Shown here piece after piece: positions 7,953 through 64,000 of a DNA stretch of 64,000 nucleotides; position 1 is the stretch's first letter, and each line of letters begins with the position of its first letter. A program made the position numbers and the translations under genes. The notes below the pieces were generated by a model. It did not search any database. It was not told where the DNA came from and was given only the letters and a program-made list of their open reading frames with translations. The stretch is taken from contig BLSG01000172.1 of assembly GCA_012862495.1 (NCBI GenBank), positions 9,711-73,710 on the forward strand, written 5' to 3'. This DNA comes from Thraustochytrium aureum (lineage: Eukaryota).

Positions 7953-10900
7953 ATGTCTTCAACGGTGAGCGGGTCCTGGGGCGGCGTGCCCCGCGAGCTG
8001 CGGCAGGGGTGGGCCGAGCGACTCGAGGCGGCCTCGCAACGCAGCAACGACGGCTTGCGCACGATGGAAAGGGCGCAGGTTGTCCGTGTCGCACGCGGCG
8101 GTCCTGCAGAGGAGAGCCAGGAGGCCCGACCCACGGTCCGCGTGTTTCTGTCCTCTACTTTTACCGACACCCGCGTCGAGCGCGACTTGCTGATTGCAGA
8201 CGCCTACCCGTACTTGAGGGCGCTCGGACGACGACTGGGCGTTGAGTTTCTGCAGCCCTCCGAGATGCGCTGGGGCATCCACTCGAGCGCGTCTGCCGAA
8301 CACCAGACGAGCGCAATCTGGTCCACGAGGTCCAACGCTGCTTGAATGAAAGCTCGGGCCTCGCCTTCGTGCTCTTGCTCGGAGACAAATTCGGATTTGC
8401 ACGTGTTCCCGCCAGCATCGAGTCGAGCGACTTTGCGCGTGTCGTTGCCGCGGCTCCAACCGAGGAGGAGCGTGCGGTGCTGAAAACCTGGTTCGTGCAG
8501 GACACGAACAGCATCCCGAACGTCCACGAGCTGCGCCGCGTCGCGGCACACGAAGATGCGGAGCAGTTCTGGGCGGTAACATATCCAAAGCTGCGCTCTT
8601 TGCTCCGCGCAGGGGCTGATGTGGCCTTCGCCGGCGACGCGAAGAAACGCGACATGTTTTACGAGTCGGTGACGGAGGAGGAGGTGCGCAATGGCATCCT
8701 GGAGCTTGCTGATGAAGAGCGCCCACGCCGAGCCTTTGTGTTTCACCGCGTCCTGACCGACCTGGAAGACCAACTTGAGACGCTTCCAATCGGCGAGCAA
8801 GAGCGGCTAGCCAACTACGTGGACATGGGCGGCCCGGGCGAGTGGCTCAACAGCGAAGCCCGCTTGCGTCTGACCTCGGTCGTTACGCAGCGCGTCGTCG
8901 ACGCGGTACCAGCGGCCAGCGTCGAGACGTTCCATGTGGAGCTCGGGCCAGGCCAGATCGACCAGGGCTCGCACGACGAATACCTTCATAGATTCGTGGA
9001 CGCATTCTGCTCCGTGCTGGCATCCTCCATCGAAGAGTGCGCTGCAAACCGCGTGGCACCGCCGTCCGCGCTGGAAGGGCGCATTTACAACGAGGCTGCC
9101 TCGCACAACGCCTACGTGCGGGCTCGCGCGAGCTCCTTTCTCAAGAACGCGTCCAACCAGGCCGCCTACGCCGCTGCGGAGAGCTACCTGGTCCCCAACG
9201 AGGAGCCGACCGCCGCATTTGTTGTCCACGCCGAGAGCGGGGCGGGCAAGACATCTTTCATGGCGAGCTTGGCCGCCAGCGTGCTCGCGACCCAAGCCGA
9301 AGCCGTCGTGATTTCGAGGTTCCTCGGCACGACCATCGCGTCGAGTACCGGGCGCGGCCTTCTAACCTCGCTCTGCAATCAGATCGCACTCGCATTTGGG
9401 ACTCTCGACGCGTCCGAGGCGGAGAACATGGCGAGCGAAGACCTGGAAGCCCTAGGCCGCCGCCTCACGACGGTTCTGCCTCTCGCGACGGCGCAACGGC
9501 CGCTCTACCTTTTCCTTGATGCACTGGATCAGCTATCGCCGGAAGATAACGCGCTCGCTCTGGAATGGCTCCCCGCCGTCGGCTCCCTCCACATGTGCGC
9601 CTCGTCGTCAGCGTCTTGCCCGACGAAGGCAGCGACAACGANNNNNNNNNNNNNNNNNNNNNNNNNNNNNNNNNNNNNNNNNNNNNNNNNNNNNNNNNNN
9701 NNNNNNNNNNNNNNNNNNNNNNNNNNNNNNNNNNNNNNNNNNNNNNNNNNNNNNNNNNNNNNNNNNNNNNNNNNNNNNNNNNNNNNNNNNNNNNNNNNNN
9801 NNNNNNNNNNNNNNNNNNNNNNNNNNNNNNNNNNNNNNNNNNNNNNNNNNNNNNNNNNNNNNNNNNCCTCAGAACGTGGCCTCCCTGGACAAAACCTCGC
9901 CTGACGACGGCTTGGTTCTCGTAAAGAGCTGGCTCCGCTTTGCCAACCGCTCTTTGACCCCAGAACAGGAGGCGCTCGTGGTTAAGGCCGCTCGCAAGAC
10001 GAGCTCGCCTACACCGCTCTACTTTAATCTCGTGTTCAACGCTGCCAGACTTTGGCGTTCGTACACCGCCCGTGACGAGACCCGCCTCTTCACGAGTGTG
10101 CATGAAGCCGTCAACGCGGTTTTCAACAACCTTCACAGGGGCCATGGCGAGACCTTTGTAAGAGTAGCCCTTGGCTTGCTGACTGCCGCCCCGCTCACCG
10201 AGAACGAGCTCATCGACATTCTTTCATTGAACGACGCAGTGCTCGATGCCGTATTCGAGTGGTGGACGCCCCCGATTCGTCGTCTCCCGCCGCTCGTCTG
10301 GACCCGCCTTGGGGACGGCCTTGCTGGCTACCTCACCAAGCGCAGCGGCGATGACGGGTCCGTTGTCCTGGCTTGGTTCCACCGGCAGTTCCTCGAGCAG
10401 GCGCGCAAGACCTATCTTGACAGCGCCGCGGCGCAGACCCATCAGGCCATCGCTGACTATTTTGACGACGCCGTCGACGCGGAGAAGAAGCTCGAGCGTT
10501 TCACCACGCCGCAGCCGCTCTACCTCCCCGGAAACGGCGACGTCAACGAACGCAAGGTGCGCATGCTCCCATTTCACCTGCGCCTTGCTGGCAACTTGGA
10601 CCGCCTCAAGGAGGTCCTCCTCGACCTCGACATGTTGGACGCGGCACTCAACCTCGACTCGGCAACGATGCTCCGCGTGCTCGAGTATTGGCGCGAGGCG
10701 CTGGGCGGCAACAATGCTGCTTCCCAGGCATACCTCGCGCAGGACTTTGCCGCGCTTCGGCACCGCCGAGCCGTAGGCAAGCTCATGCGGCTCATGGGCC
10801 GCTACCATGACGCTGTGTGCGTCCTTCGGCCGGCTCTGGGCGAAACGGTCGCGGGGGATGTCGATGCAAAGCAGATGCTGCTTCTCAAGACAGAGCTTGC

Positions 10901-11909
10901 CGACGCGCTCAACCTCAAGTCGGACTACGCTGAAGCAGAGGTACTCTACCTCGAGGTGCTGCAGGCGATTGGTGACTCGGACCCTGAACAGGTGGTCGAC
11001 ATCGGCATTCGCTTCGGGCAAATGCTGGTGCATCTTGGGCGCTATGCTCAAGCCAGGGAGCGGTTTGAGGTTGCGCTCGCCAACGCCGAGGCGCTGCATG
11101 GCCCGGACCACTTGCTGGTGGCGTCTGTGTGCGAAAAGTATGCAGACCTGTTGCGAACGCAGGTCCGGTTCGATCCGGAAGCCAGCAACACCGACAACCT
11201 CACCGAGGAGCTCTTCGCTCGCTCGGTCTCTATTCGCAAGCGCCTGCTCGGAGACGACCACCTTGACACAGCGCAAGCGTCGTTCGGGTTGGCCAGGTTT
11301 TTCCTTTACCTTCGCCGCTTCGACGAGGCTCGAGAGCTGCTCAACCAAGTTGCAGCTTGCAAGTTGAACCTGCTGGGGAAAGACCACCCTGACGTGACGC
11401 AAGTCGAGTACAACATTGGGGATCCTTGAGACGGAGAGCGGCAATTTTGCGCTTGCGGAGCAGATCTTCCGAATCGTCTTGACCACGTGGTGCAAGACGC
11501 TCGGCGACGACCACCCGTACGTGGCGACGGCATTGCAGGCCGAGTCCAAGCTCTTTGTCAAGATCGGTCGCGTTGAGGATGCAAAAGCTGCCTTGCGCCG
11601 CTGCCTCGAGATTCGCGAGCACCGCTTTTCGGTGTTGCACCCGAGGTACTTGGACGCGAAGAGGGAGCTTGACGCTATGCTCGAGCAGACTGGTCCTGCC
11701 CCCCCGGACGGCGCTGGCGCATCGACGACGAGACAAGCCGCCAACACCTCTCAGGCCAGGCCGCGCGGCGCTGCTAGCAACAGCCGAGAGGCGACAGGGC
11801 AAGTGGCAAGGCCCAGCGCTCGGGCTGTGCTGCAATGTAGGAGCGCAAGGTCGTCAACCAAGCTCGAACGAATGAGCAGAGACGCAGAGCAACTCGCGAG
11901 TAAACTCGA
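7953..11909 (+). CDS. DUF4062 - NACHT/STAND NTPase - TPR protein (NWD/NPHP3-like; frameshifted and gapped)
   Basis: VRVFLSSTFTDTRVERDLL...EMRWG (DUF4062), SVTEEEVRNG, Walker A HAESGAGKTS, Walker B LYLFLDALDQL, PPIRRLPPLVWTRL, WFHRQF, then kinesin-light-chain-type TPRs (LGDDHLDTA, LGKDHPDV, LGDDHPYVA). Split over ORFs 7953, 8342, 9516 and 11416. Confidence 0.85.
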
Positions 11910-12195: not shown

Positions 12196-14674
12196 TCAAC
12201 AAATCCATGCATGGCCTTTCGTTGGACGGTGGGCCGTCTTCGGGCCGTGGCGCGCACCCCTTGAGAAGGAAATCATCAGAGCTAAAGCTGGCTGCCCCGG
12301 CCCGCTCGAGGTGGGCAAGGGCACGAGGCCCTCAAGCGTCGCGTCCACAGCGGCGCAAAGCGGCCCGTCGAACGCCGACGTGCAGGGCCCCACCTCCACC
12401 TCTCGGTCAGGGCGCACCCCGCCATTCTCGAGCTCCAAGCCGCGGTCGAGAGCATAGTAGGCCAACGTGGGGTGCGTCAGCGTGGTCGAGTCGACAAGGC
12501 GGGTTTCCACCGATATGCCAGTGACCCCACCCCAAGTCTGCGAGCCCACGACCGGGCCAAGCTTGAGGGTCTGAAAGGCGTGCGCAAGAACCTCGGCGTC
12601 GCTGGCCGAGGTGCCGTCCACGACGAGCGCGAGCCGTGATGGCGCAAGCGGGAACGACCAGGGCTTGCCGAAGCGCGGAAGGCAGAGCGCCACCGGGCGC
12701 TTGCAGAGCTTTTCCAGCAGCTGCTCTGACAAGTTGCCACCCGTGTTTCCGCGGACGTCAACGACGAGCGCGTCGTGCTGCCCCTCGCCGATAAACTGCT
12801 GCGAAAATATCGCAAAGCCACGCGTGTCCATGCTAGGGACGTGCACGTAGCCACACTGCCCGCGCGAGCGCTGGTGGACGAACGCCGCGCGCTTCGCAAT
12901 GGCGTCAAAGTACCGCGCGGCTTGTTCCGCTCGCTCGCTCATACACCGCACGCGCACGCGACCAACGTCTGTGCTGTCGCGCCCGAGCACGTCAAGTAGC
13001 ACGTCGCGACCAGCCATACCCACTAGCACCATCTCGAGCGTCCAGGCAGAGCTTACAGGCCGCCCATTCACCGCAGCGATCGTGTCGCCCTTGCGCAGCT
13101 GCGTCCAGCAGCCCCCCAGCGAGCCGCTCGTGACCTGCGACCAGTGCTGGCCGCGGACGACTCGCTCGACCTGGAAACCGCGCCCTGTGTAGCGACCATC
13201 GACTCCGAGCCTGCCCACCTCTTGGTCATACGACGGCGCTCGCCCTGCCACGTCAAAGTCGCCGAGACTGGCGTAGGCGTGCGACATCCCAAACTCGCTC
13301 AGCGCTTCGGATATCAGGTCCGCCAAGCAGAGTCGCGACCGCGCAGCACAGAGCCTGGCGCAGTAGCGGCCAAAGTCGGCGGCGCCAACGCGCGGCTGCT
13401 TCGCGCCGGGGAAAAGGTGGTGGCCCTCCTGGGCACACGCAGACCACACTTCTGCAAACATTTGCGCCCACTCGCGTTGCGGGTCTACCTCGAGCACAAT
13501 GCGGCGATCAAGCCGGACCTTGCCCTTGCTGCGAAGCTGGCCCATCCTGACGTCGAGGTCGCGCGGGTCCTGGTGCTCCACGCCTGCGTCCTCCTCTTCG
13601 TCGTCGCTGTCAGCAAAGCACTCGGCCTCCTCCTCGAACGAGGCGCTAAAGCAACGCAGCTCAGTTGCGCCGCCGCGGCCGCCAGAGCACCACACCAGGA
13701 TCGTTTGGCCGTCCATCGCCACGTCCACGTCGACGACGTCTGACCTCCGCAGCACAAGTTGGCGGCGTGTCTCGGTGTTGAACAGGACAAGGTCGCCTTG
13801 TTCGCTGTCTGCTCCGTCCTCCTCCTCGTCAAAGTCGGGGTGGTGCGGGTTGCGCATTCCCTCGACGCGCCGCCTCACGAACAGGACTCGGCCCTTGCTC
13901 AGTGCGACGAGGCTACTAGCGCTGTCCCGGGCCAGGTTTTCATGGGGACGGCCCGCAGCCTGCTTTGCTGCACGTCTCCAAAGATCAGCTCTGGCTCGTC
14001 GTACGCCTGTGGGTCTGCCTCGCGCCGGTATCCGCTACTTCCACTTTGGTGCGTTGCGGTGGGCGCAGGCGCTGGCGTTGCGCTTGGGCCGCCCCCGATC
14101 TTTTGCTTGCCAGAGGAGCCGCGGGCTCCTTGCTGGCCTCCGCGACCTTGCTCGCGCCGCCCCGGACTAGGTTCCTCTTCTTGCTCGCCGCCGTCCTCGT
14201 CATCGTATTCTCCGGCGTCGTCCGCCCCGTTCTTGTCGTTGTCGTCGTCGCCCTTTGGGGCGCGAGGCGCGTGAAGAAACGGGTCGCCAGGCACATCCTG
14301 CAGAGGCACCATCATGAGGCACTCGCTGGCCGAGAATCCAACCGAGCCGTACAAGTGATCCTCGATGCAGCGCAGGTTGCGGTTGGAGACAAACATGACG
14401 AAGCGCAGGTCGGGGTCCACGCAGGGCGAGTGGTCTGAAAACCCATCGTTCTCGCTAACAAAGTGCACCTTCGGGACCGGCCGACGCTTGTCCTCGACAG
14501 CGACGGCGCAAATGGTTCTGGCGCGTGGCGAGGTCGCCATGGAGAAAAACACGTACCGGCCGCAACTCGAGAACACGGTGTCGGAGATGCCCTCCTCGTG
14601 CGCAGAGCGAGCGAGCAGGTGGACCGAGCAAGAGACCGGGTCCTCCCTCTTCTTGTTCTTTTTCTTGCGGCTTG

Positions 14675-14706
<32 letters not shown>

Positions 14707-15127
14707 CGGCTGCGCTTCGGCCCGGCGCCTTTGGGTTTCCCACTTGCGGCGTTGTCCTCATGCTTGCCCGCCTTGGGGTCGGCGCGGCCCTGCTCGCCTT
14801 CCGCCGCGCCCGGTGGCGGGTCGAGCGCATCTAGGTTGTGAATTCGCACCAAAACCAGCTCGCCGCGCGTGTTGACGACCGCGACCGCGTCCTCTGTTGG
14901 GCTGGCCACAGCGTGCGTCGGCCGACCCAGCTTTTCCGCGTCCACCTTGGCCTTGAACCCCTGGAGGAGGGGGAGGACTTCGCTTGCCTCCTCGTATCCA
15001 GACTCGTTGGCCGCGAGCTGGGCTCCAGAGGCGAACCCTTCGAGCCAGATCTGGCCTGGCGTGTCGTCCAGCGCAAATGCGGCTAGTCGGCAGTCGCGCA
15101 AGTACACAAGCCCAACGTACCGCGTAG
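12196..15127 (-). CDS. Tricorn protease-like S41 peptidase (beta-propeller + PDZ + S41); 5' end in gap, one apparent frameshift near 13900
   Basis: EWAQMFAEVW, SEFGMSHAY, PDZ GDTIAAVNGRPV, GYVHVPSM, LVVDVRGNTGG, TSASDAEVLAHAFQTLKLGPVVGSQTWGG, LENGGVRPD; upstream propeller-like FSSCGRYVFF and DPDLRFVMFVSNR. Confidence 0.85.
14677..14704. repeat. (TTG)n trinucleotide run encoding poly-Asn in the tricorn-like gene
   Basis: ttgttgttg... seen directly. Confidence 0.85.
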
Positions 15128-21658: not shown

Positions 21659-23034
21659 CCCGCATTTACAAACCAGATGGCCGCTTCCACCGCAGAAGGG
21701 TCGCCAGCGGCTGAAGCACCGAGCGCGCTCTCCCTGGTCCCGATCAATCGCCAGCGTCGCCCTTGCAACACGATGTCGTCGATCAACATGCAGACAAGTG
21801 CCCGCATGGGCCAACGGTAGAGTACGTTCGCGCCCCTCTTCAGTACTCCCAACCCAGCCGACAGCATGTGCCCGGCGACCTCTGCAACCCGGCGGTCGGT
21901 CCCGGTCGGTCGCGTCCTCGACGGAGCCCAAACGCAACCATTGACTCGGAGGGCAGCCCACGTCGCACTTGGCGTGCCTCTCCGTTCCCTCCGAGGACAG
22001 CACAAGCCGCGTGCAGGCGCACACGCCGTGGACTCGATAGACGCGCGTACCGGGCCACGCCCGGGCTGTCCAATCAAGCTCCACTGCGCCGTGCGCTGCC
22101 TCGTGCGCTGCGCCTGGAGAGGAGCGGCTCCCCGAACTCTCGCCAGAATGGCGCCATGCTCGAGGTGGGCAACGNNNNNNNNNNNNNNNNNNNNNNNNNN
22201 NNNNNNNNNNNNNNNNNNNNNNNNNNNNNNNNNNNNNNNNNNNNNNNNNNNNNNNNNNNNNNNNNNNNNNNNNNNNNNNNNNNNNNNNNNNNNNNNNNNN
22301 NNNNNNNNNNNNNNNNNNNNNNNNNNNNNNNNNNNNNNNNNNNNNNNNNNNNNNNNNNNNNNNNNNNNNNNNNNNNNNNNNNNNNNNNNNNNNNNNNNNN
22401 NNNNNNNNNNNNNNNNNNNNNNNNNNNNNNNNNNNNNNNNNNNNNNNNNNNNNNNNNNNNNNNNNNNNNNNNNNNNNNNNNNNNNNNNNNNNNNNNNNNN
22501 NNNNNNNNNNNNNNNNNNNNNNNNNNNNNNNNNNNNNNNNNNNNNNNNNNNNNNNNNNNNNNNNNNNNNNNNNNNNNNNNNNNNNNNNNNNNNNNNNNNN
22601 NNNNNNNNNNNNNNNNNNNNNNNNNNNNNNNNNNNNNNNNNNNNNNNNNNNNNNNNNNNNNNNNNNNNNNNNNNNNNNNNNNNNNNNNNNNNNNNNNNNN
22701 NNNNNNNNNNNNNNNNNNNNNNNNNNNNNNNNNNNNNNNNNNNNNNNNNNNNNNNNNNNNNNNNNNNNNNNNNNNNNNNNNNNNNNNNNNNNNNNNNNNN
22801 NNNNNNNNNNNNNNNNNNNNNNNNNNNNNNNNNNNNNNNNNNNNNNNNNNNNNNNNNNNNNNNNNNNNNNNNNNNNNNNNNNNNNNNNNNNNNNNNNNNN
22901 NNNNNNNNNNNNNNNNNNNNNNNNNNNNNNNNNNTATCTTGTTATTACAAGACTCGGTAACGCAATGAAAAAACTGACATCGCTTCTTTCTTACAAACTA
23001 TCAACGACAAAACTGCGAAGCTTCCAGAAAAAAC

Positions 23035-23083
23035 TGCCAGGCTGGCAACTTGGGGTCTGCCTGCCGCGACTCCGGCAGACCCC
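23035..23083 (+). repeat. Tandem inverted repeats immediately upstream of the Fanzor ATG
   Basis: TGCCAG-G-CTGGCA (23035-23047) and a 10-bp stem GGGGTCTGCC (23052-23061) / GGCAGACCCC (23074-23083). Confidence 0.7.
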
Positions 23084-23091
23084 TAACGCCG

Positions 23092-24996
23092 ATGGGCAAG
23101 CGCAAAGCGAAGCGGGAAGGCGAGAGCCTTCCTCTGGACCAGCGTACCAGAGACAGCACTGTCGCAGTCCCTGCTTCGCAGAAGAAATGCAAGGTGCCGG
23201 GGCTTATGGATCTTATTCGGGAGGTCGTTCCTGAAGCCAACGCTGCAGCGTACTATGCTGTTCTACTGGCAAACATGTTTGTAACGATGCTTCTCGTTAA
23301 CGCGATTCCCGTCCCTGCGTTGGATAGGCCGTTTTTCGAGCTGTGCATTAGGCGCGTTTCTTCCAGCTGTACTGAACCTACCAAGCAGAGGTGCAGGGAT
23401 ACTGGTATAGAGCACGCTTACCGCTACATCTGGGGTGACCGGGAGAAGCTCGTTAAAACTATATATCACGGGAACATCGTCGGCAACGCTGCAACAGAGA
23501 TGGCGACTGCTGCTGAACTGTACAACACCAGAGCGCTGTACCATCATATGGTCCAGTATGTCAGGTCAAAGTACAATGTATCAAAGGGTCACGCCAAGTT
23601 CATTTGCGGACAAATTCGCAAAAAGGAAGACCAGGACCCGCTCGACTACGAAAGCATACCCGACAAGCTTGACATTCAGGAGTCAGACCTGCACGACATC
23701 ATACTGTCGGAAAGGGACATTTATCTGGAAGCCGTGGCAAACGAGCGGATCGTGGAATATCGTTTCATGCTCATGACTGAAATCCAAGCTCTGAGTACAC
23801 CCGAAAAACGTCTCAAGTCGTTCACAATCATCCCCGAACGTCACCCTGGAAACCAGTTCATGACTCTCGATCAGGAAACGCTATCTCGTCTCTGGAAACG
23901 TCGTCAGCCTAGTCGGTCAGACGCGGAGGCGTGGACACGGTGGAACGACGTTCTTGAAACCTACAAGTCGATCGGTGACTGGTTTAAACTGCCTAAACGC
24001 GGGTCGTCATGGGACAACGGAGCATCACTGAAGACAAACGGATTCGAGTTTCACTTCACGTTCGACAAGAACAAGACCAGACACCCGGTTACCAAGCGAG
24101 CCAAGAAACCCAAGTCGGCCATGACGATCGAGGAAGATGACTGGAACCCCGAGCGCGTGTTCACAAACAAGGCTGGTGTCGATATCCGCGACCCGACCAA
24201 TTTCGTAGCTGCAGACGTCGGGAACTACAACATCCTCACATGCGTTAGCCCGACCCGTGAGACCCACCCCACCGGCTCTCCGAAAATGGACGTACGCAAC
24301 TACAGGAAAATCCGGTACAACCACGAGTCCAAGCGTACGAAGGTCAACGATAAGGTTCGGCTCCTGCAAAAGGACGTCGGCATACGGGCTTACCAGAACG
24401 TACTCTCCCAGCACAGCATGAAGACGACGAATCTGGAATCGCTGAAAGACGCTGTGCTTGCGCGTTGCAAGGTGTATCACGTCCTGTATGCTCACTACAG
24501 CAATCGTCAGTTCCTCAAACTGAAGATGGAGGCTCGGATGGCCGAAAGACGAGCCATTGACAAGATGCTCAACTGGGTCACCTACGGGAAGACCAAGCCT
24601 CTCGGCATAGGCGACTGCTCAAGGACGACGGGGATCAAGGGGACCTCTCCGGGAGGCCCGACGAAAAAAATCAAACGACATGCCATAAAGTCCGGCTACG
24701 AGCTGGTCTTGGTGAACGAGTCGTACACGTCTAAACGCTCAGCGTGTTGCCAAGGTCACGACCTGGTACCAGCGCAGAGACGGGACGCGGACGGGCGTCT
24801 TGAGGACATCCACGGACTACGCATTTGCTCAAAATGTGGTAATACGTGGGACCGGGACGTCAGCGCGGCTATCAACATCTTTGACGTGTTTTACAATTCG
24901 GTGGTGCTAGGGGGGCCACGCCCTCCTCACCTCCTTAAAAAGTGCGATACCGGGCTTCTGGGAAGGACATGGCATTCGCACCTAATCCGTGGTTGA
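23092..24996 (+). CDS. Fanzor (Fanzor1-like, TnpB-derived RuvC RNA-guided endonuclease), ~634 aa
   Basis: RuvC-I FVAADVGNYNILT, IGDCS...KG.SPGGP, RuvC-II VLVNESYTSK, Zn-finger SACC...CSKC, RuvC-III WDRDVSAAINI, tail RPPHL; upstream FTIIP and KTNG motifs resemble Fanzor1 F.l.P and TDG; basic NLS-like MGKRKAKR. Confidence 0.9.
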   Translation: MGKRKAKREGESLPLDQRTRDSTVAVPASQKKCKVPGLMDLIREVVPEANAAAYYAVLLANMFVTMLLVNAIPVPALDRPFFELCIRRVSSSCTEPTKQRCRDTGIEHAYRYIWGDREKLVKTIYHGNIVGNAATEMATAAELYNTRALYHHMVQYVRSKYNVSKGHAKFICGQIRKKEDQDPLDYESIPDKLDIQESDLHDIILSERDIYLEAVANERIVEYRFMLMTEIQALSTPEKRLKSFTIIPERHPGNQFMTLDQETLSRLWKRRQPSRSDAEAWTRWNDVLETYKSIGDWFKLPKRGSSWDNGASLKTNGFEFHFTFDKNKTRHPVTKRAKKPKSAMTIEEDDWNPERVFTNKAGVDIRDPTNFVAADVGNYNILTCVSPTRETHPTGSPKMDVRNYRKIRYNHESKRTKVNDKVRLLQKDVGIRAYQNVLSQHSMKTTNLESLKDAVLARCKVYHVLYAHYSNRQFLKLKMEARMAERRAIDKMLNWVTYGKTKPLGIGDCSRTTGIKGTSPGGPTKKIKRHAIKSGYELVLVNESYTSKRSACCQGHDLVPAQRRDADGRLEDIHGLRICSKCGNTWDRDVSAAINIFDVFYNSVVLGGPRPPHLLKKCDTGLLGRTWHSHLIRG

Positions 24997-25110
24997 GCCT
25001 CCAGCTCCCTCGGGTTAGATAGTTGAACCTGTTCGTTTAACATGCTTTACCCTTGACTGGGTAGTCGCATGACGTGGCTTCCTATCCATTAGTTACGCGA
25101 ACTCTCAACT
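24960..25110 (+). ncRNA. Putative omegaRNA scaffold of the Fanzor (guide predicted in the downstream gap; 5' boundary approximate)
   Basis: Hairpin 24982-25018 spanning the stop codon, hairpin 25041-25071, enclosing stem 25021-25041 / 25092-25110; position matches TnpB/Fanzor omegaRNAs. Confidence 0.65.
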
Positions 25111-26419
25111 NNNNNNNNNNNNNNNNNNNNNNNNNNNNNNNNNNNNNNNNNNNNNNNNNNNNNNNNNNNNNNNNNNNNNNNNNNNNNNNNNNNNNNNNNN
25201 NNNNNNNNNNNNNNNNNNNNNNNNNNNNNNNNNNNNNNNNNNNNNNNNNNNNNNNNNNNNNNNNNNNNNNNNNNNNNNNNNNNNNNNNNNNNNNNNNNNN
25301 NNNNNNNNNNNNNNNNNNNNNNNNNNNNNNNNNNNNNNNNNNNNNNNNNNNNNNNNNNNNNNNNNNNNNNNNNNNNNNNNNNNNNNNNNNNNNNNNNNNN
25401 NNNNNNNNNNNNNNNNNNNNNNNNNNNNNNNNNNNNNNNNNNNNNNNNNNNNNNNNNNNNNNNNNNNNNNNNNNNNNNNNNNNNNNNNNNNNNNNNNNNN
25501 NNNNNNNNNNNNNNNNNNNNNNNNNNNNNNNNNNNNNNNNNNNNNNNNNNNNNNNNNNNNNNNNNNNNNNNNNNNNNNNNNNNNNNNNNNNNNNNNNNNN
25601 NNNNNNNNNNNNNNNNNNNNNNNNNNNNNNNNNNNNNNNNNNNNNNNNNNNNNNNNNNNNNNNNNNNNNNNNNNNNNNNNNNNNNNNNNNNNNNNNNNNN
25701 NNNNNNNNNNNNNNNNNNNNNNNNNNNNNNNNNNNNNNNNNNNNNNNNNNNNNNNNNNNNNNNNNNNNNNNNNNNNNNNNNNNNNNNNNNNNNNNNNNNN
25801 CAAAGAGTTGGCCCAAGCAACTTGCTCACAAAGCAGTGTCCTGGATCAAGTGAACGAACGCGGACCTTGCGAAAGAATCACGAACCAAGGCCGAAGTTGT
25901 TTGAGCACCTTGCCATGCAAAACCGTCGCTTGGTGGATAGATAGATCGGTTGGCGCAACGCTGTATGGTCGCGCCGCCGCAATTCCAATGCGTCTTGGTC
26001 TTGTTTCACGTTCGTCATTCTGCCTCTCCTACAAGATGCTCCCCGCTGCTTTTGCTTTCTACACCGGCCTAGAAGAGACTGCAATCGGATTGATGTGCAT
26101 ACGCTTTGCTCAACTGCGCACGGCTTTGGCGCGACGGTCGTTGTGGCACTATCGCTCACGCTGCATTCGTACACGCCCGTGCTTGGTATTCGCACAAAGA
26201 CTTGGCCGCGCGGTCCGACCACTGCTCGACGCTGCAACGACCCTGCCAAAGAGAACGCGACGCAGCTGCAGCGTCTCGCACTCACACCATAGCCCGTGGA
26301 GCTGTCGCCTCCTTCACCTTTGAGATGCATTTGGCTTCCTCAAGGCCTCGACTCGGGCAATTGCATCCAGTGTACTGGTGTAGAAGGAGACAGAGGACGT
26401 ACCTGAGCTGGATTGTGTG

Positions 26420-47400: not shown

Positions 47401-50400
47401 GGGCGAGGAATATGAAACGACCGACAAGGGCCCCGCTCAATCGAAATCGACCAGCAAACCACATGCCGTTGCATTTGCTTCAGACAACGCAGGTGACGCA
47501 GCCAAGCCGCCATCAACGCCAGCGATGGCGGGGCTCGACCGCTCTCGCGCGACCGGTCCGCGCGAGTCGCCTCGCTCTGGCTCCGGTGGACCCAAGGCTC
47601 AAAGCCAAGGCTCTCGCAAAGCAAGCCTGGCTGGAACGATGTGCGTAGCAATCATGTACGCAGACGGCGTCGTGCGGTTTCTGCTCGCCTATTCTCTCCT
47701 TCCGGTGCCAGTTAACGCAATCCGTATCCAAGAGGCCGATGTCTCAGGCTCGAGCGCCTTTGTGGACCTTGCTATCCTGAATATGGACAACGCTGCATAC
47801 CTTTACGCCTTGCGCGCAGACGGGTCAGTGGCGACAGTGCACCTCCCTTTACAAGCTTGCTCGCACCTGACGTCGTTTCCGTTCGACCTGAGCGACCAAG
47901 ACGAGCGCAGCGCGTTGGCGGGGGAGCGGGAGCCGACGCTCAACGAGCTCGACGCGCTACGCCAGCAACTCGAGTGGGAAGTTCTTGCGTTTCGCTCGTT
48001 CGTGCCCGCTAGAGGGCGCCAACGCGTTTTCACAACGGGAAAGAGTGGGACCGTCCTGCGATGGCGCATGCAGGGCCGAATTGGAGCCGATGGCACAGAA
48101 CTGGACAACGATCCGGACGACGCCAGCGAAGGCATCAAAGCTCCTGGCACCGATTCGACCGGGCGGCGGAGCTCGCCAGGTGACGGCACACTCGGTGGTG
48201 GAGGTGGCGACCATGCAGTTTCGAGGCGGGTGGGCTCATCGAGCCCCATGCGGATCTACAGCGTCGACATTCCAAACGACGCCTTGACTGGGAGCTTGAG
48301 CTCGTTGAGCCGTGTGCGCTTGGACGGCTGTTTGTGCATATCGATCTCCAGATGCGGCAAACCACTACGCCCCAACCGGCGCTCGAGTTTGCAGGGACGC
48401 GGGGCGCGTGCGCGTCTGTGAGCCTTCGCCCGCTCTTCACTGATGAGCGGGCAACGTATCTGACGGTTGAGGCTTGGGTGAAGCCGAGCTGGGGCGCCGA
48501 GAAGAGTGGCTACCAAAGTGGTGATTCGGATCACCCAACTGGCGTCGAAGATCCTGACATAGTTGAAGTGCCGGTGATTCGAAAGACCACCAAGGGCCCA
48601 GACGGTGAGGTCCCCCAGTACGAGCTCAGCATTACCCGGTCCGGTCGAGCCTGCTTTCGAGTGTGGAAGGACGACGACAACGTGTACACCACCTCCGTAC
48701 TCCGAGGGCTTGGGTCTGAGGAGCGCGTTCTCCGACCTGGCGAATGGCATCATTTGGCCGCCGTTGTCGGTGGCTCGGGACTAGAACTTTTCGTGGACGG
48801 CGACTTGTACGCCGCAAGCGAGCTTGTCCGGGTCACGATGCGCCCCGACTTGGAGACCTCTCGGAGCCCCACATCGGCTATAAGGGTGCAAGGGACGAGC
48901 AAACCGCAGCCTGCCACCGAGGTTGGCCTCGCAGAGGGGGCCGTGGAGACGGCGATCAACGAGGAGTCCGCCAACCAGGAGGGCAAAGCCACCACCGGCG
49001 GCCCAAGCCGCGCAGCTGAAGGCTGTACGGCCCGCTTCGTATCGGAGGCGACGGCGCTGATCGGTCGTTCCGCGGGTGTGTTAGGCACGTTCNNNNNNNN
49101 NNNNNNNNNNNNNNNNNNNNNNNNNNNNNNNNNNNNNNNNNNNNNNNNNNNNNNNNNNNNNNNNNNNNNNNNNNNNNNNNNNNNNNNNNNNNNNNNNNNN
49201 NNNNNNNNNNNNNNNNNNNNNNNNNNNNNNNNNNNNNNNNNNNNNGTGTTAGGCAACGTTTCGCTTGTGGGCCATGTCGCGATCGCAGCAACAGGTCCGC
49301 GACTGGATGCACCACAGCGTCTCCTCGGCCAGGCCGGGACGGCGCTGGCGCCGTGCCCAAGGATTCAGCTCGTCGGCCCTCGAGGAGCAGCAGTAGCAGC
49401 AGCAGCAGCAGCAGCGGCGGCGGCGGCGCGGATAGCGAGCCTGATGGCGGCGAGGGCAGGGACCGGCGACCGCCTTGCTGGGGGCGGCGGTGACGACGAC
49501 TCCTCTACTGACAACGAAACGGGTGGACTCAAGTCTCGCCGTAACGTCAAGCGCCCACTGAGACTCGACACGGCGGCCCTGGCAGCCGGCCAGGACGCCG
49601 CAGCACTGTCTTTTGGGGAGGCTGCCAACCTCGTAGGCGCCTGGCCGCTAGACCGTCCTCCGCCCCGCTCTCATGACGGAAGGGCGTCCATCCGTCTTCC
49701 TGTCCAGGCAGGTGGGATAGAGGGCGTTCCCGGGGCCAACTTGTCGAGCCCGGCTGCTGCCCATTGGGTCTACGCAAACGTACCGCTGATGGACTACACG
49801 CCTGATCTGTCGATATCTGCAACGGTTCACTCGTACGAGTCTCCGAAGGGTCAGCGTGTTCTCGACGACGAAGCCCTCGAAGGCTGCGAGGTTTCCTTTG
49901 ACCTGGGGGCTGTCATGGGGAACCGCCTGGTCATCTCGCTCCACCAGTCGCCCAGCGAGCATCTAGCGACTGTGACAGGGGTTTCGTTTCACGTGACCGG
50001 CCGGGCGTTGAGCACGACCCTCAAGCTCCGCGAAAGGCTCCCGCTCATCTCCAAGCACTACCTCCCATGGGTGCCTCTCCAGGGCCTGGCGGCTGCTTGG
50101 CGCACGTTTTTGAGCAAAGCCTTTGGGCGCGCGCTGCTCGGCATGTTGCTCCATGGTGGCTCTAACGACGAGGTTGAGTCATGCTCCCCAGCAAAGCGGC
50201 TGGTTGCAGTTAAGCTACTCCAGTACCAGCTCCTTGCCGGTAGCACCTGGCTTCCGTCGGCACTTGACGCTCGGTCGATCGAGATGCTCTTGAGCGCCTT
50301 GCTCATCGATCTCGAAAGCTGCGCCCTTGCGCCGGAGATTTGCGAGGCGGCCTGCGCCCTTGTTCTTCAAATCGTCAGAGCAAGCGAGCGCCAGGAAGGC

Positions 50401-53400
50401 GCCGTGGGACTACGCGAGCAAGTCTTCAACGCGGCGCTGAACGTCCTCCCAGATGCCACAGACCGCGCTGAGACCGTTGAAGGCGTCACGCAGCTCCTGG
50501 AGATCGTCGCGAGGTGCTGGCCAATTAAGGGCAGTCGAGCCTACACGATGGCGTTTACCAACATTATGGAGCAGCTTTGCGCGATCGGAGACCGCCTCGA
50601 CTCACACCGGTCGGTTTATCACAACATGCTCCGCACTTTCTTTGCGGACTACACGCGGCCGTTNNNNNNNNNNNNNNNNNNNNNNNNNNNNNNNNNNNNN
50701 NNNNNNNNNNNNNNNNNNNNNNNNNNNNNNNNNNNNNNNNNNNNNNNNNNNNNNNNNNNNNNNNNNNNNNNNNNNNNNNNNNNNNNNNNNNNNNNNNNNN
50801 NNNNNNNNNNNNNNNNNNNNNNNNNNNNNNNNNNNNNNNNNNNNNNNNNNNNNNNNNNNNNNNNNNNNNNNNNNNNNNNNNNNNNNNNNNNNNNNNNNNN
50901 NNNNNNNNNNNNNNNNNNNNNNNNNNNNNNNNNNNNNNNNNNNNNNNNNNNNNNNNNNNNNNNNNNNNNNNNNNNNNNNNNNNNNNNNNNNNNNGCCGGC
51001 AACCATGACACAAGCACTGCGGGTGGGCTTGACACCGCTGCTGGGTCAGCGGGGGGCGCCACAGGGTCTGCGCTGCTTTCGTCCACCGATGCGGCCGCCG
51101 GCGCAAGCAAGAACAGCAGCCTCGGCGCTGTGAGCGTGTTGACCGTGCACTCCAAAACGCCGAACGCGAGTGTGGAGGGCATCTTGTCTCAAAGCAGCGG
51201 TAGCAGTGGCAGCAAGCTGACGCCGAAATCGCGCCCCGGGAGCAAACCCAAGCAACGCGGGTGCACAGGCCTCCCTCCAGGCCGGCTCGTGGTCAAGTTT
51301 TCCAACGTCCTGCAGTCTTCCAAAGACTCGGTGTGCGTAATCGACCTCGGTCACTACTGCAGCATTGGAGCACTGAGCGCGGTGCCGACGCTCGAGCCGC
51401 CCGCGTCAACCGCGGGTGCCGCCGCAGCGGCGACCATTTCGGGGATACTGACCGTCGAGGCGTGGAAGTCGCGCCCCCCTTACGCCGGGGAGCGGTCGCT
51501 CATCAAGGCGCATGGCGTGGAGCTCGAGCTGCACGCGTTCAGTGGAAGCTTTACGTATGACCGTGATGGCACGATCGGCGTCAAGAGCCACTTTCCAACC
51601 GTTGTTCCCCGCAACGTGCTCTTGAGTTCCGGCAAGTGGTACTATGAAGTGACGCTGGTTAAGACTGGCGACGGGGTTGCGCAAATCGGCTGGGCGGACT
51701 CTGCGTTCCAAGGAAGCGACGACGAAGCGACGGGCACCGGAGACGATGATCACAGCTGGGCGTATGACGGGCACCGGCAAAAAAAGTGGAACAGCGGCTG
51801 CACGAGCTGGGGCAGCCGCTGGACTGACTCCAAAGTGGTTGGCTGTGCTGCCGACATCGACAACCGTGTGTTGAGTTTCTCGCTAAACGGGTCCTGGTAT
51901 CCACCGATGGGAGTCGCCTTTAAGGACATCGTCATCTCTGGCGGGCTCTTTCCCTCCATCACAGGCGAGCGAAACTTCAAATGCCAGGTCAATTTTGGGC
52001 AAAAACCTTTCCACCACTCGCCACCCGAAGGACATCGCGCAGTATTTGATTGGGTGCGTGAGAACCAACACACGGTCGAGTCGACAGGATCTGGTGCGCC
52101 TGTGAGCGCCGCAGAGTCTTTTGTGAGCGCGCTGCCCACCCCGATCGGGGACATCAGCGGCATGGGGAGCGCGACCGCTGCGAAAGGTGGCGGTGCCCCA
52201 TTTGCGGCCCCATTGCTGTCCAAGGCGAGGTTTGACCAGATTGCCTCGGTGTCTCGTGGGACCAGCAGCAGCCGGGAATCAAGCACTGCGGGCGGCAGCG
52301 GCAGGTCGGGGATTGTGCTTGTCCGGTGCGCCCTACGCAACGGGCAGACGCGCGTATTGGACTCGAAAGATACCCGATTTATGGGTGAGTGCGAGGCAAG
52401 GTATCTCCGCGTTGTTTTCAGCTGTCACGACAACGCAGAGATGCAGCCCTGCTCGCAGTTCTACAACGCAATTGCCGTCCCGAGTTCCGCCGCTCAGATG
52501 CAGGACGATGATGCTGGGAGCGCAGCAGCGGGCCCAAAGAGCCGTGGATCAAGTTCTCTGGTCGGCAGTGACAGGGTGCCGCCCAGCATTGCGATCTGCA
52601 CGACAGACTACGCGCAGGACTTGACTGAAAGCGAGCTGAAAGAGGCGTCCGACGAGTCGCTGGCGGTGGCGAAGGGCGGCGACGCAAGCCAATCGCCCTC
52701 TACCGATGCAGCCGAAGCAAGCATGGAAGACTCCGTCCGCGCGTGCCGAACCGCACCCGGGCCCCGTCGCGGGTCTTCAGTCTGGGCCCACCATTCTAGC
52801 CAAAAGCCACCTGCGCCGTCGACGAAAGGCAATGATCAATCGTCAGATGCTGTGGAGGAGAAGGGCATTCTCGACGAATTTGAGGTCGAGAGCCCTGGTG
52901 AGGTCGGCGAGTCGGGCAAATGGGCAGGCAAGACGGCGGCCTCCAACTTTGTGTCTTACTTCAATGCGCTGAAAGAAAGCGTGAAATCCGGTGCGTCCGC
53001 AGAGGTCACGGGGCTCGCGACAAAGGCGTTGGCCTCGACGTTCGCCGGGTCACTACATGCCGACAGTCTCTCGCACCTCTCGGCCCTCTCAAAGCCGAGC
53101 AAGTCAAAGGCGCTCGTTGGGTCCGCCCTTAGCGCGGCGAACGGGACCTCCTCCGCCTTGTCCTCCGTGCGTAAGAGGTCCCGCACTGCGCCCAACATCA
53201 AGGTGTCAGTCGAGCTGACCGCAGAAGGGATCTTGGATTGCGTGCCGCTCGCCGACGTTCTTCCGTCCAAGCTGCGTTCCTCCTTCCTCGTCGAGAGCAA
53301 GGCTGTCGCGGAGACCGCGTTCGTATCCAGCCTCGCGCGCGTGGCAGAGTGCCGCCAAAATCTCGAGCTCGCCCTTGAGCGCTTCAGTGGGTCGATTGGA

Positions 53401-56400
53401 ACGGCCTCTGCTGGGACGTGGGAGGGCATGGATACGAGCGCGAGCGGCTGGGACGAGGCATTTGCCGAGATGGAGGATTCCCATCCCCTCTTTTCAGCTG
53501 TCCAGTCAGTCAAAGTCGCGCTCGTCGACGGGGTGGCTTGCGCCCTCGCGGACGCCGAGGTGGCCCGGGAACGATTGGACTATTTGCACAAGGTGGTTGA
53601 CCTCGAGGCCGAGCACGAGGCGGACGACATCGCGCTCAAGGCGGAGAGCTCCCCTATGCTCGCCATGCTCAATGCGCGCGTCGGGAGCATGCCGTCGAGC
53701 GAGGGAGGGGCCTACTTTGACACTGTGCCCGTGATTCGGCCTGGCCGCGCAGAGTCGATGCGAGTTAGCAGGTGGTACCGCATGGTGGAGATGCTCACCA
53801 ACCTGCTGGTGCGTAAGTTCCCAGACGACGACCCGGCGACGAGCACGAGCCGGCCACTGCCAGTTCGGCCGCCCTAGTCGTGTCTGAGCCCAAGCCGTTT
53901 GTTTCCGTCGTTCTCCTGCACAAGGTCTTCTCGCACTTTTGCGTGCAGCACACGTGCTCTGCGGAGCAAATCCGCGTCACTGGCAAGCTGGTTCGGCGGG
54001 GCTTGCGAAGCATCAGCAACCTCTTTGCGGACGCCTCCGCCGAGTTCGCCTGCGACGTTTTGCGGAATCACTTTGCCACTCCTAGCGTCTTTCTCGGCCC
54101 AGCCTTGGCTTTTCCTGAGCAACCCGTTTTTGCGCTCCTGAAGGCTATTGTGGAGGGGCCCAACGCCACGTTGGCAGTACAAAGGATCTTGGCAATGATC
54201 CAAGGTCTCGTCCAAGCCAACGCGGACGAGGCGGCGCTGTCCGCCAACATCCCTCTCATCAGCTGGGCTCTGGTCCTCCTGTCCCATGCGCTTGAGAGTG
54301 AGGCGCAGAGCGAATCCGCCCTGGCTGTCCGCGGAGACTCCTCAACGGAGACTGCGACTCGTGCCGTTCACCCGAACTGCATTTGCGCCGTCTGCGGGAC
54401 TAGTCCAATCGTTGGATGCCGGTTCCGCTCTGTCAACCTCGCTGATTACGACCTCTGCGAGATTTGCGAAGGTGCTGGGCGCTACCCAGACCCAACCCAC
54501 GTATTCCTCAAGATCCCGCGCCCTTTGCCTCTTCCGCCGGCAGCCGATCAGCCCCATCTTCTTCCGCTTGGACCTCTCCTGCCGGATTTGCGCACCGTGG
54601 ACGAACGCGTAGGCAGCGGAGAGCACATGAGCCCTATGGTAACCGTGGCGAGCGCAGCGAAAACAGCATCGTACCACGCGCATGCCGGGAAGAGCACAAC
54701 CGCAAAGCTTGCTGCTGTCTCGGCAGACGCCGCTGCCACCGCCGCCGCTTCCACGTCCACTAGTAGCGCATTGTCGAGCGGCGTTGGTGCGGTCGCTTCG
54801 CCATTCCTGGACGAGTTGCCGGGTGATGCTTTGCTGCAGGGATACTCGGCGACCGGCTCGCTGAAAATCTCCTCAAAGCAAAAAGTCGGTCCAATGGCGG
54901 GGCCAAGGCTGGGGCTTTCGGCACCACCCCCAACAGCGCAAATCACTCGAATTACCTCGCTACTGAGGCAGCATCGACCGATTTGCACACTAGCTCGTCG
55001 GGCCCGGGCGTGTCGTACTTTGACATTGACAGCGACTCTGATGGCTCCATCACCTATTCCTCGGGCGCAGCGGGGGGTGTCGAAGCTCCGAAACCTGGGA
55101 GTGCGAGCGCCGGCGGGGGCGCCAAGCAAGATGGTGTGAGCAAAGCCCAAGGCTCAAGCCAGCTCCTTTCAGACCCGAAATCTGCGGCAGTCGCTGCGGC
55201 CGCTGCAGCCGGTATTGGCCCTGTACACCTTGGGGTTGCCTGCGACGGGTGCGGCATGAACCCAATCGTCGGCGTTCGGTTCAAGTGCGTAAATTGCGAC
55301 GAGTTCAACCTCTGCACGAGATGCGAAACCTACACCGAGTCGACGCGGGGCCACTTTGCGATGCACGTCTTCGCCAAGCTCCGCCGCCCGCTGCCTTTCG
55401 TTCAAGACACGAATCCCACCGCTTTGGTAGCCGATCAGGCCCTTATTCCGGTCCTTCTCCACCCGAGCTTTTTTGGCAGAGTGATGCGGGGCTCGGAGCA
55501 AGAGCTCGAGTCGCAGGGGCGATCGGTGGGCTCCGGGAGGCTGCACATTGGGGCTAGTGCAAAGCCGCTTGGGAATGAAGCCCTGGGAGCGTCTCTGATT
55601 CTGGAGAGCTTGGCGATGCACGGCTCGATCGAGGACCAATCGGGCGCCCCAAGTGGCATGGTCAAGATCAACCGCCGCCACAGTCATATCTTGAGCTCCA
55701 CGGGACGATTTGGAAAGCCGACCTCTGTGCTGAGCGGCTATGCCGGGTCCTCGATTGCCACGCGCGAATCAAGCGTCTTGGACTCGCCACCATCGAGGAG
55801 GGCAGGGTTCAGGTCGTTTTCCTTCTCCGAAGAGGACGAGCTGGCCGCTGCGGCCTCCGCGGCCGCAGGCGAGAGCGCCGAAGACGCTGCCGAGCGCGCA
55901 AGATCTGCAGCGGACGCGCGCGCCCTCGAGGTGGTCTTTGCTCTTTTGAGCTCGCCGGTGATCCTGTCCCCGCTGCAAATTGAGCTCTTCTTGATGATCG
56001 CTCGGGTGCTCGAGCAGCTCGTTCTTCGGTCCTCCACTGACGCCATTGTCAAGGGTGCTCTAGAGTTGGATGGCTTTGTTGCGTTTCTTCGACAGATCGC
56101 CGGGTGCTCCGAACCGTTTGTGCACGGTGCCGTTGTTCGTGTGTGCGAGGCGATGTGTGCGCGGACGGCGTCGCAGGGGATTCGGCGACTCCTTCGCGCC
56201 AAGGTGGTGGACGCTCTTGAGCCACCCCCCCTGGAACCGGCGTTCGTGTTGGAGCTTTTGCTGGTCACGCTTGGGCCTGTTCCGATGCCCGTCATGCCCG
56301 TTGGCGAAGACGGCAGCTTGATGGCAGTGGTCCCGCTCCACGCAAGTCGAACTAGCTCCGTCCGGGGCCTGGCGCAAGCTGGCCTGACCGCGCACGGCGC

Positions 56401-62400: not shown

Positions 62401-64000
62401 AGACCAACTTTAAACTTGCGGGGTACCCAAGCTGTTTCGTCAATGACCGCGACTGCGTGGGCCTCCTCTTCGCGCTTGTCGAGGCCGACTTGCAGCACTG
62501 GGCCGAGGAGCGTCGAGCATGCATTCAGCCCTCCGCTTCAGCGCTTAGCGACCCCGTGGGAGCGCTCGTCCTTTCGCTGACGCGGCTCTTTTCCACTGGC
62601 GCGGAGCCAGTCAGCTGCCGCGAGAGCGCAGCGCGGTGCGGCGTACTAGACCGCGTCTTGCTGCGCCTCGGCCAAGTTCAGTCCGAGGAGCCGCGGCGGC
62701 CTGAGCGCACTCGGCGTTTCGATGACTCGCACCAGCACCGCCGGGCCGAGGAGGACATCCAAGAGGAGCTCAACGCCAAGAGCGCGTTGGCTGCAACAAG
62801 CAGCGCTCAAGGGGAAGATAGCGGCGAAGGCGCGGCGCACGCAGGCGAGGCTGGCGGCTCAAGCCAGGGCGGCGACGCCGATGCCGCGTCAGAGTCGGGC
62901 AAAACGCTCTGGGCTCCAGGCTACGGCTATGGCAGTGTCGACACGGCACAATCGGACCGCAAGCGCGAGCAGCAGCAGCGCGGAAACTGGAGCGAACGCT
63001 TGTAACGCTCGAGTGCATGTGCGCTTTCCTCAACATGGATAGCGTCGTTGCCTCGCAGATTAGCCCTGCCGTGTGGGCCGAGATCCTCGACGCGCTCGAC
63101 GCCTCGTGCCTTTTGCGCGTGATGATGTCGTCCTTTTTCGGCAACACGTTCAAGGTTGTCATGGACAATGCAGTGCTGTACCGGTCGCTCCTGCGTGTCG
63201 TGTACTCTATCGCCAGCTTCCCGGCCCTTCGACCGGTTCTCCTTCCGGTTGATGGCGTGTACCGCTCCTTGGAGCAGCTTATGCAAGAGCTCGAAGACCT
63301 GCTCGAAGACATGAGCGAGGAGGACGTCGAGGAGCGTGAGGACGACGAAGACGTAGAGGAGGATGAGCAGGGGGGCGGCATTGCGGCTTCGAACGCCGTG
63401 AAGAAGCGGGCGGCGGCTGCGTCAGCTACTGCTGCGAGTGCTGCTGCCACAAAGGAGGGCGCGTCTGCGCCGCTGGTCGACGTGGATGCGCTCCAATCGC
63501 GATTTCTCGCCGGAGACGCCAGGGTCCTGGACCCGCTTGCGGACCTCTCTCTGAAGCAGCTCATTGAGGCAACAGCGAGCCTTGTGAAAAAGCAGGCCAA
63601 AGCATATCGGGAAGAGGAGCGCCAGCGCCTTGTCGAGGAGGCGAGATTGCGCATCCTTTCGGAAGAAGAGTCCCCCACGCATGACGATGCTGCGGTTGAC
63701 GACCAGGTTGGTGCGTCGGAGGCTTCTCCCGGCGCGAAAGCTCTCGAGGGTGACGGGGACGCAGAAGCCACATTTCTCCGCGAGCTGCACACTATTTATG
63801 AGGACGCGCTGCGACCAGAACTGTTCGGCAACCGCGCGATGTGCGTTGAAGGCCGATATGCACACCACTACCACACTCAGATCGAAGATGACATCAAGGG
63901 CAAGGTGAGCAAGACGCGCATGCGCCGGCTCAACCGGGAGCTCAAGGCACTGCGCAAGTCTCTGCCGCTGCACTACAACTCCTCTGTTGCGCTGCGCGTC
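44348..64000 (+). CDS. BIRC6: Giant BIRC6/BRUCE-like E2/E3 ubiquitin-conjugating protein with extra KOW-like, LamG, 2x SPRY, 2x ZZ and MIB/HERC2 domains (multiple frameshifts, runs off window)
   Basis: Degenerate BIR LAGAGFFY...PTLEHSFLAPWSRFVQHKVTANVPL (~45110-45420); LWAPGYGYGS (~62908-62940, cf. BIRC6 YWAKGTGFG); window ends in HHY...RMRRLNRELKALRKSLPLHYNSSVALRV (start of a BIRC6-type UBC). Confidence 0.75.

Follow-up and report, generated by a model that had tools for sequence, protein, structure and literature searches.

Fanzor proteins follow the general pattern D-X(125-275)-[TS][TS]-X-X-zinc finger-X(5-50)-RD (PMC3627910), in which the RuvC-II glutamate lies six residues ahead of the zinc finger (PMC10711439). 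In Fanzors the RuvC-I motif is described as DPG nearly without exception, and TDG, located in the WED domain, is a Fanzor1 motif (PMC10711439). One survey tree holds 649 eukaryotic and 80 viral Fanzor proteins (PMC10432273); few Fanzor1 proteins have been characterised, and three are represented by solved structures among the PDB entries searched. The SPu-1 element, which encodes SpuFz1, is about 2.1 kb in size and carries a single ORF without a transposase (PMC3627910). In the characterised Fanzor1 loci the RNA derives from the right end and reaches 14-15 bases into the flank, and that of GtFz1 overlaps the end of the ORF (PMC10432273). Fanzor1 RNAs are described with a terminal stem (PMC10711439).

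In the 64-kb window (the whole stretch of DNA analysed here), we found a gene of this type on the + strand at 23092-24996. An earlier note, made from the sequence alone, had claimed an intact and intronless ORF of about 634 aa, and its coordinates and length hold: the 634-aa reading frame runs from ATG 23092 to TGA 24996 in a single exon, with no internal stop or frameshift. The stop-free frame comprises 672 codons, far above chance, as 1000 base shuffles of the surrounding island gave at most 363. All motifs named beforehand were located, i.e., AADVG (D375), VNESYTSK (E543), CSKC (579-582), RDVSAAINI (D589) and the basic N-terminus MGKRKAKR. The KRKAKR stretch of the latter (23098-23115, +), picked by eye, is a candidate nuclear localisation signal; 11 of the 12 proteins compared, also judged by eye, possess a basic cluster in their first 25 residues.

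By its sequence and predicted fold, the 634-aa protein is a Fanzor1 with a complete D-E-D triad. Pfam recognised the Cas12f1-like_TNB domain alone (residues 525-596, E 3.5e-11, above the cut-off), and the NCBIfam TnpB model scored 46.9, below its cut-off of 100. A word-indexed protein search retrieved five relatives of 38-63% identity and a HMMER search 657 at E <=0.001. From these, an alignment of 103 rows was composed of the query, the five word-search relatives and 97 of the best 150 of the 657 HMMER matches, picked for being long or near full length. Compared with PDB chains, the profile of this alignment matched most strongly the three Fanzor1 proteins SpuFz1 (1.9e-76), PpFz1 (1.6e-65) and GtFz1 (1.5e-63), followed far behind by Fanzor2 (5.5e-12) and then by Cas12f or TnpB chains. 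As the 103-row set includes distant rows, a second profile was made of the 19 closest rows, and it matched solely the three Fanzor1 chains (E 3.1e-15 to 4.6e-8).

The AlphaFold2 model (pLDDT 94.7, pTM 0.90) leads to the same family. The first seven Foldseek rows are all Fanzor1, with SpuFz1, PpFz1 and GtFz1 as the best folds (E 8.5e-19 to 6.5e-16, TM 0.52-0.66), while the Fanzor2 chain 9b0l is matched at E 2.2e-4 and TM 0.22. VIA-align superposed 487-531 residues of the model on Fanzor1 chains at Z 18.7-23.8 and rmsd 3.7-5.5; for SpuFz1 itself, TM is 0.63-0.66 and Z 18.7-21.6. Among the 1000 chains realigned, those other than Fanzor1 do not exceed Z 12.5, and Fanzor2 reaches Z 10.7 over 337 residues. 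The structural alignment also recovers the enlarged REC and WED architecture of Fanzor1 (about 600-800 aa), unlike that of Fanzor2 and TnpB. The D, E and D of the 103-row profile align to positions 777, 935 and 1000 in the fusion chain of SpuFz1, which a single offset of 394 converts to D383, E541 and D606, the catalytic residues of SpuFz1 (PMC11423790). Their counterparts here, all encoded on the + strand, are the RuvC-I D375 in DVG (24214-24216), the RuvC-II E543 in its rearranged position (24718-24720) and the RuvC-III D589 in RD (24856-24858). In the 103 rows, the RuvC-I D column is nearly invariant, the RuvC-II glutamate is present in 99 and the RuvC-III RD in 93. The general Fanzor pattern is likewise retained, with D375, T546-S547, a zinc site at 550-582 starting with Ser, and R588-D589, and six residues separate E543 from position 550, at which the zinc site begins, as described for Fanzors. 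The proposed Fanzor1 membership is thus borne out by profile, fold and alignment of catalytic residues.

Three motifs depart from the common form. The RuvC-I motif is DVG where DPG is expected; across the 103 rows we counted DPG in 76, DVG in 9, DKG in 6, DPN in 5, other motifs in 4 and a gap in 3. The TDG-like motif of the earlier note proved to be TNG (residues 315-317, 24034-24042, +), which the profile alignment places on the WED-domain TDG of SpuFz1 and PpFz1; it is a conservative variant common in relatives. As for the putative TNB zinc site S550-x-C552-C553...C579-x-x-C582 (24739-24837, +), read from the alignment columns, its first half is S-A-C-C (550-553) instead of C-x-x-C. There are still four cysteines, arranged SxCC...CxxC rather than CxxC...CxxC, and C552, C553, C579 and C582 are invariant in the 19 closest rows.

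The xxCC arrangement characterises a supported clade. A FastTree tree was computed from the 86 rows that reach 520 aa, leaving aside 17 shorter ones. In it, the query and 36 other xxCC rows share one branch with support 99, and three further xxCC rows lie elsewhere; the label changes twice on the tree, against a mean of 28.7 for shuffled labels. DVG rows are nested among DPG and DPN rows. This tree consists of search matches alone, has neither a named reference nor a true root, and contains some long-branch joins. Of 30 relatives checked, a single one carries a eukaryote name, P0027 (CAK9034974.1), which originates from a Durusdinium trenchii assembly, and the P0014 cluster contains two short fragments that bear the label Xanthomonas citri and come from contigs of just 517 and 248 bp. 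No other members of the xxCC clade among those checked have a species name, and contamination may explain either label. A separate relative, P0077 (1740 aa, on a contig of 12,315 bp), a protein without Pfam matches, has a Fanzor1-like region at 1231-1641 and is a possible fusion. In the tables of two surveys (PMC10432273; PMC10711439), the motifs of the clade occur in scattered single-motif rows, with no close relative among the matches listed, which suggests that the xxCC clade is absent from their sampling. We tentatively raise the possibility of an uncatalogued Fanzor1 subclade (xxCC, TNG, partly DVG) in labyrinthulomycetes and comparable microbial eukaryotes, or in the giant viruses of such hosts, whose element would lack terminal inverted repeats and would have a 130-nt branched omegaRNA and its own TAM; this larger picture is the less probable part of our interpretation.

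Directly at the 3' end of the gene, RNA folding predicts a branched structure at 24982-25110 (+) that is likely the omegaRNA scaffold. It consists of a stem-loop at 24982-25018, which covers the stop and the four codons before it, and a branched domain that a stem of 25021-25026 with 25105-25110 closes; the final base of this stem directly adjoins the downstream N run. The fold (-47.8 kcal/mol, z -5.14) was equalled in stability by none of 200 shuffles and ranks first of 66 equal-length windows on both strands of the island, the runner-up having z -3.2; with z -2.0 on the minus strand, it is strand-specific. We read it as a scaffold because it overlaps the ORF end and stop like the GtFz1 RNA and has a terminal stem like Fanzor1 RNAs. 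Rfam contained no match for it up to E 1. A 17-base pattern taken from the fold matched two viral contigs with no Fanzor nearby, and we regard these matches as chance. A possible pseudoknot of 25104-25109 with 24992-24997 is a 6-base match that competes with two of the predicted stems.

The gene fills most of an island of 2,176 bp (22935-25110), which, judging from its composition, is probably the body of a non-autonomous Fanzor-only element. It is bordered by N runs of 760 bases upstream (22175-22934), which would contain the left junction and the TAM, and of 690 bases downstream (25111-25800), which would contain the guide and the right junction. Both are read as assembly gaps, and since N runs are common in the window, which has 15 of them, the flanking pair counts as weak evidence. 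The GC content of the island (0.529) is the lowest of the segments above 500 bp, the others ranging from 0.58 to 0.66, and its tetranucleotide fit is the worst among the 16 segments of that size; GC3 of the gene is 0.65 vs 0.72-0.89 in three host exons. No terminal inverted repeats above chance were detected in the island, the likeness of its ends being matched by 215 of 500 shuffles; such repeats may be hidden inside the N runs. No target-site duplication, TAM or element ends were seen in the island, whose ends adjoin the N runs, and the parts of the window compared gave no second copy of it. Upstream of the gene, a perfect 10-bp hairpin (23054-23085, +) has its 3' end 6 bases before the ATG; the fold of 22945-23091 has z -2.33 and was matched in stability by 2 of 200 shuffles. 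A 6-bp hairpin occupies the far left of the island (22937-22952). Each hairpin may serve as a signal, be it for the left end or for translation. Helitron2-type ends, considered on account of the leftmost hairpin, were dismissed, as no matching subterminal repeat was seen.

Nine public sequencing runs share words with the island, and three of them from one study (X1-X3) contain 66-74% of its words. We guess X1-X3 to be RNA; none of the nine is on record as such. Four runs, X1-X3 and one from another study (X4), were compared with the island. In X1-X3 the stretch 23991-24147 is present in two versions, with 0-1 and 10 differences, at a depth of about 1:1, and the two may be alleles of the same locus. 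Contigs with 10-15 differences per 70-110 bases, together with homologous-looking loose ends, point to diverged Fanzor paralogues in the same runs, as far as the sequences tell. The runs thus contain some paralogues in addition to two or more nearly identical versions. At 24487-24618, X1-X4 also contain contigs about 85% alike that appear to be further Fanzor families of the clade, one of them at high depth in X3. Forty of 46 variants were listed and 27 of these used, leaving out 12 rows of diverged contigs and one from a contig in which a part was skipped; the 27 fall in 25 codons, of which 13 are changed synonymously, 12 nonsynonymously and none to a stop. This is an excess of synonymous changes at p 0.0009 if 22% are expected and at p 0.017 if 30% are expected. 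In none of the four runs do the contigs that span the predicted scaffold show a change in it.

The contigs of X1-X3 continue unbroken past 25110 for 1,426, 278 and 1,417 bases, so that neither a right terminus at 25110 nor a large number of copies follows from these data. The X4 contig stops 2 bases beyond 25110 at a depth below 6, which weakly fits an end there. The fall in depth of X1 and X3 at the 3' end is a per-contig mean and was not used as a measure of copy number. X1-X3 have no cover over 22935-23080, which would fit a transcript start near the ATG, though absent cover proves nothing.

We determined that the neighbours of the island are ordinary eukaryotic genes, as had been claimed: they encode a 26S proteasome AAA subunit, a potassium channel, SMC and Rcd1, and the upstream proteasome gene carries a GT-AG intron. 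Of 42 other stretches of the window compared with Pfam, 20 matched ordinary cellular families and none a transposase, resolvase or viral family, the N runs hiding 1,450 flanking bases. The claim that the gene is embedded in a protist chromosome stands in part: the surroundings are eukaryotic, yet, as the island lies between two N runs, its link to them is by scaffolding alone. The same window contains further genes worth noting. One encodes a tricorn-type protease (Peptidase S41 with a tricorn PDZ, ~12199-15125, -) and lies among the eukaryotic genes. Such proteases are better known from archaea and bacteria, and an old horizontal transfer is possible. Another (~8246-11426, +) encodes an NTPase with winged-helix and TPR parts (NPHP3/NWD1-like) that recalls STAND immune receptors, and a series of large frames (~48184-63005, +), whose domains include laminin-G, SPRY, ZZ and MIB_HERC2, is likely one huge ubiquitin-ligase-like gene.

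With regard to the host, the 5'-nucleotidase encoded 12.5 kb downstream is nearest to that of Mucochytrium (56% identity) and falls into a branch of seven rows (SH-aLRT 99) that also includes Mucochytrium and Hondaea. This was a quick tree of 38 rows, i.e., the query, the best 36 and one more of the 120 matches listed. From this one gene, the sequence suggests a labyrinthulomycete host. None of six labyrinthulomycete names occurs in the searchable supplements of the two surveys (PMC10432273; PMC10711439), in which control names are present. Among the papers searched, none pairing Fanzor with thraustochytrids was found beyond one passing mention, and a term search of a preprint on thraustochytrid viruses (10.64898/2026.07.28.741200) gave no TnpB or Fanzor term. 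The description of the lineage as under-sampled is thus plausible, as no labyrinthulomycete genus occurs in the two survey tables, but the lineage itself is assigned from one gene.

Taken together, the locus is probably an intact Fanzor1 gene carried by a small, non-autonomous mobile element, and its host is probably a labyrinthulomycete; the protein is predicted to cut DNA by means of an RNA guide from the right end of the element. The mobile-element reading draws on the SPu-1-like size and single ORF, the GC content below that of the host and the diverged paralogues. From the sequence, it is reasonable to regard the nuclease as potentially active. By analogy with SpuFz1 and GtFz1, the RNA would comprise the scaffold from about 24982 through 25110 followed by some 15 flanking bases as the guide, the protein would enter the nucleus through its basic N-terminus, and the ribonucleoprotein would read a short TAM and cleave double-stranded DNA matching the guide. 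In TnpB biology, the empty insertion site is cut, and repair from the occupied copy restores the element. The natural target here could likewise be an empty copy of the insertion site, with repair from the occupied copy keeping or spreading the element, and the transposase would be supplied from elsewhere in the genome.

It is unlikely, in our opinion, that the gene is a Fanzor1 of a giant virus or of another eukaryote in the sample, with the island either mis-scaffolded or a recent viral arrival. Such an origin would agree with an island that is a compositional outlier joined across N runs only, with the nearest Atlas clusters, which are mostly Nucleocytoviricota, and with viral models whose match is about equal to that of cellular models (TM about 0.7, identity 14-17%); an endogenous giant virus and the alga that hosts it are also described to exchange Fanzor1 elements (10.1101/2024.09.03.611062). 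Yet, the viral matches are no nearer than SpuFz1, none of the 42 window stretches scanned shows a viral family, scans of IMG/VR proteins, sensitive to close relatives only, contained no relative, and the N runs vary in length, as sized scaffold gaps do. Scans of JGI metagenomes, equally sensitive to close relatives only, detected no related locus.

A resident Fanzor1 could still be immobile or a poor cutter, that is, one locus with two alleles, acting as an RNA-guided DNA binder or persisting as a recent relic. The two versions at about 1:1 in three runs, the contigs unbranched past the 3' end, the lack of terminal repeats and the DVG and SxCC departures all suit this account, which we nevertheless hold to be rather improbable: the three catalytic residues are retained across the clade, SpuFz1 is active despite having DPN and not DPG, the xxCC site keeps four cysteines, and the GC content below the host together with diverged paralogues suits a mobile family. 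Least credible of all is the reading as a Fanzor2, or as a contaminating bacterial TnpB, which we consider extremely improbable. Pfam and NCBIfam do give generic TnpB-type profiles only, DVG suits the D-hydrophobic-G pattern of TnpB, and a related cluster includes the two short Xanthomonas citri-labelled fragments; fold and profile, however, prefer Fanzor1 by wide margins, the NCBIfam TnpB score is below the cut-off, scans of prokaryotic genomes and phages, sensitive to close relatives only, detected no relative, and the DVG rows lie among DPG and DPN rows in the tree.

The Fanzor1 family is already well described and knowledge of it as such is unchanged by this gene; what is new is this orthologue with its scaffold prediction, on a branch that looks unstudied. 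An intact, intron-free orthologue of 634 aa with a predicted scaffold is a candidate for a TAM screen and may widen the TAM range of the editing toolbox. Labyrinthulomycetes are culturable, have genetic tools and harbour resident giant viruses and, if they are the host, would offer a setting to study the roles of Fanzors in their own cells.

Among known systems, SpuFz1 of Spizellomyces punctatus (8gkh, 9ceu-9cez) resembles this protein in size, fold and catalytic positions, and has an RNA at the 3' end as predicted here, but shares 13-15% identity with it. SPu-1 has terminal inverted repeats of 30-33 bp and none were seen in the island; SpuFz1 possesses DPN, TDG and CxxC instead of DVG, TNG and SxCC, and its scaffold of about 75 nt lies behind the stop, whereas that predicted here is about 130 nt and overlaps it. 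Fanzor2 (ApmFz2, 9b0l) and TnpB/Cas12f have the RuvC and TNB core in common with this protein, and Fanzor2 also the rearranged glutamate, but they match it at TM 0.22-0.30 and Z <=11.7, and no IS607 or IS200 transposase, such as the serine-recombinase TnpA that adjoins Fanzor2 or IS607 TnpB genes, was found near this gene in the stretches scanned. Models of giant-virus Fanzor1 proteins (Tetraselmis virus 1, Yasminevirus, Hyperionvirus, Homavirus) match the fold over the whole length (TM 0.65-0.72) at 14-17% identity, and this window lacks viral context. PpFz1 of Parasitella parasitica (9cf0-9cf3) gives the top structural score (Z 23.8, rmsd 4.6, 514 residues aligned) and is the sole solved chain matched by the single-sequence search (E 0.045); it is described with a RuvC insertion (FRI) and a 75-nt RNA, while the shorter protein studied here aligns in this region without such an insert. 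In turn, GtFz1 of Guillardia theta (9cer-9cet) is, like this protein, a protist Fanzor1 (Z 21.2), and its RNA, which overlaps the ORF end and is described as having several stem-loops, is similar to the one predicted here. The third catalytic place of GtFz1 is reported as N, in contrast to the canonical D of the protein described here.
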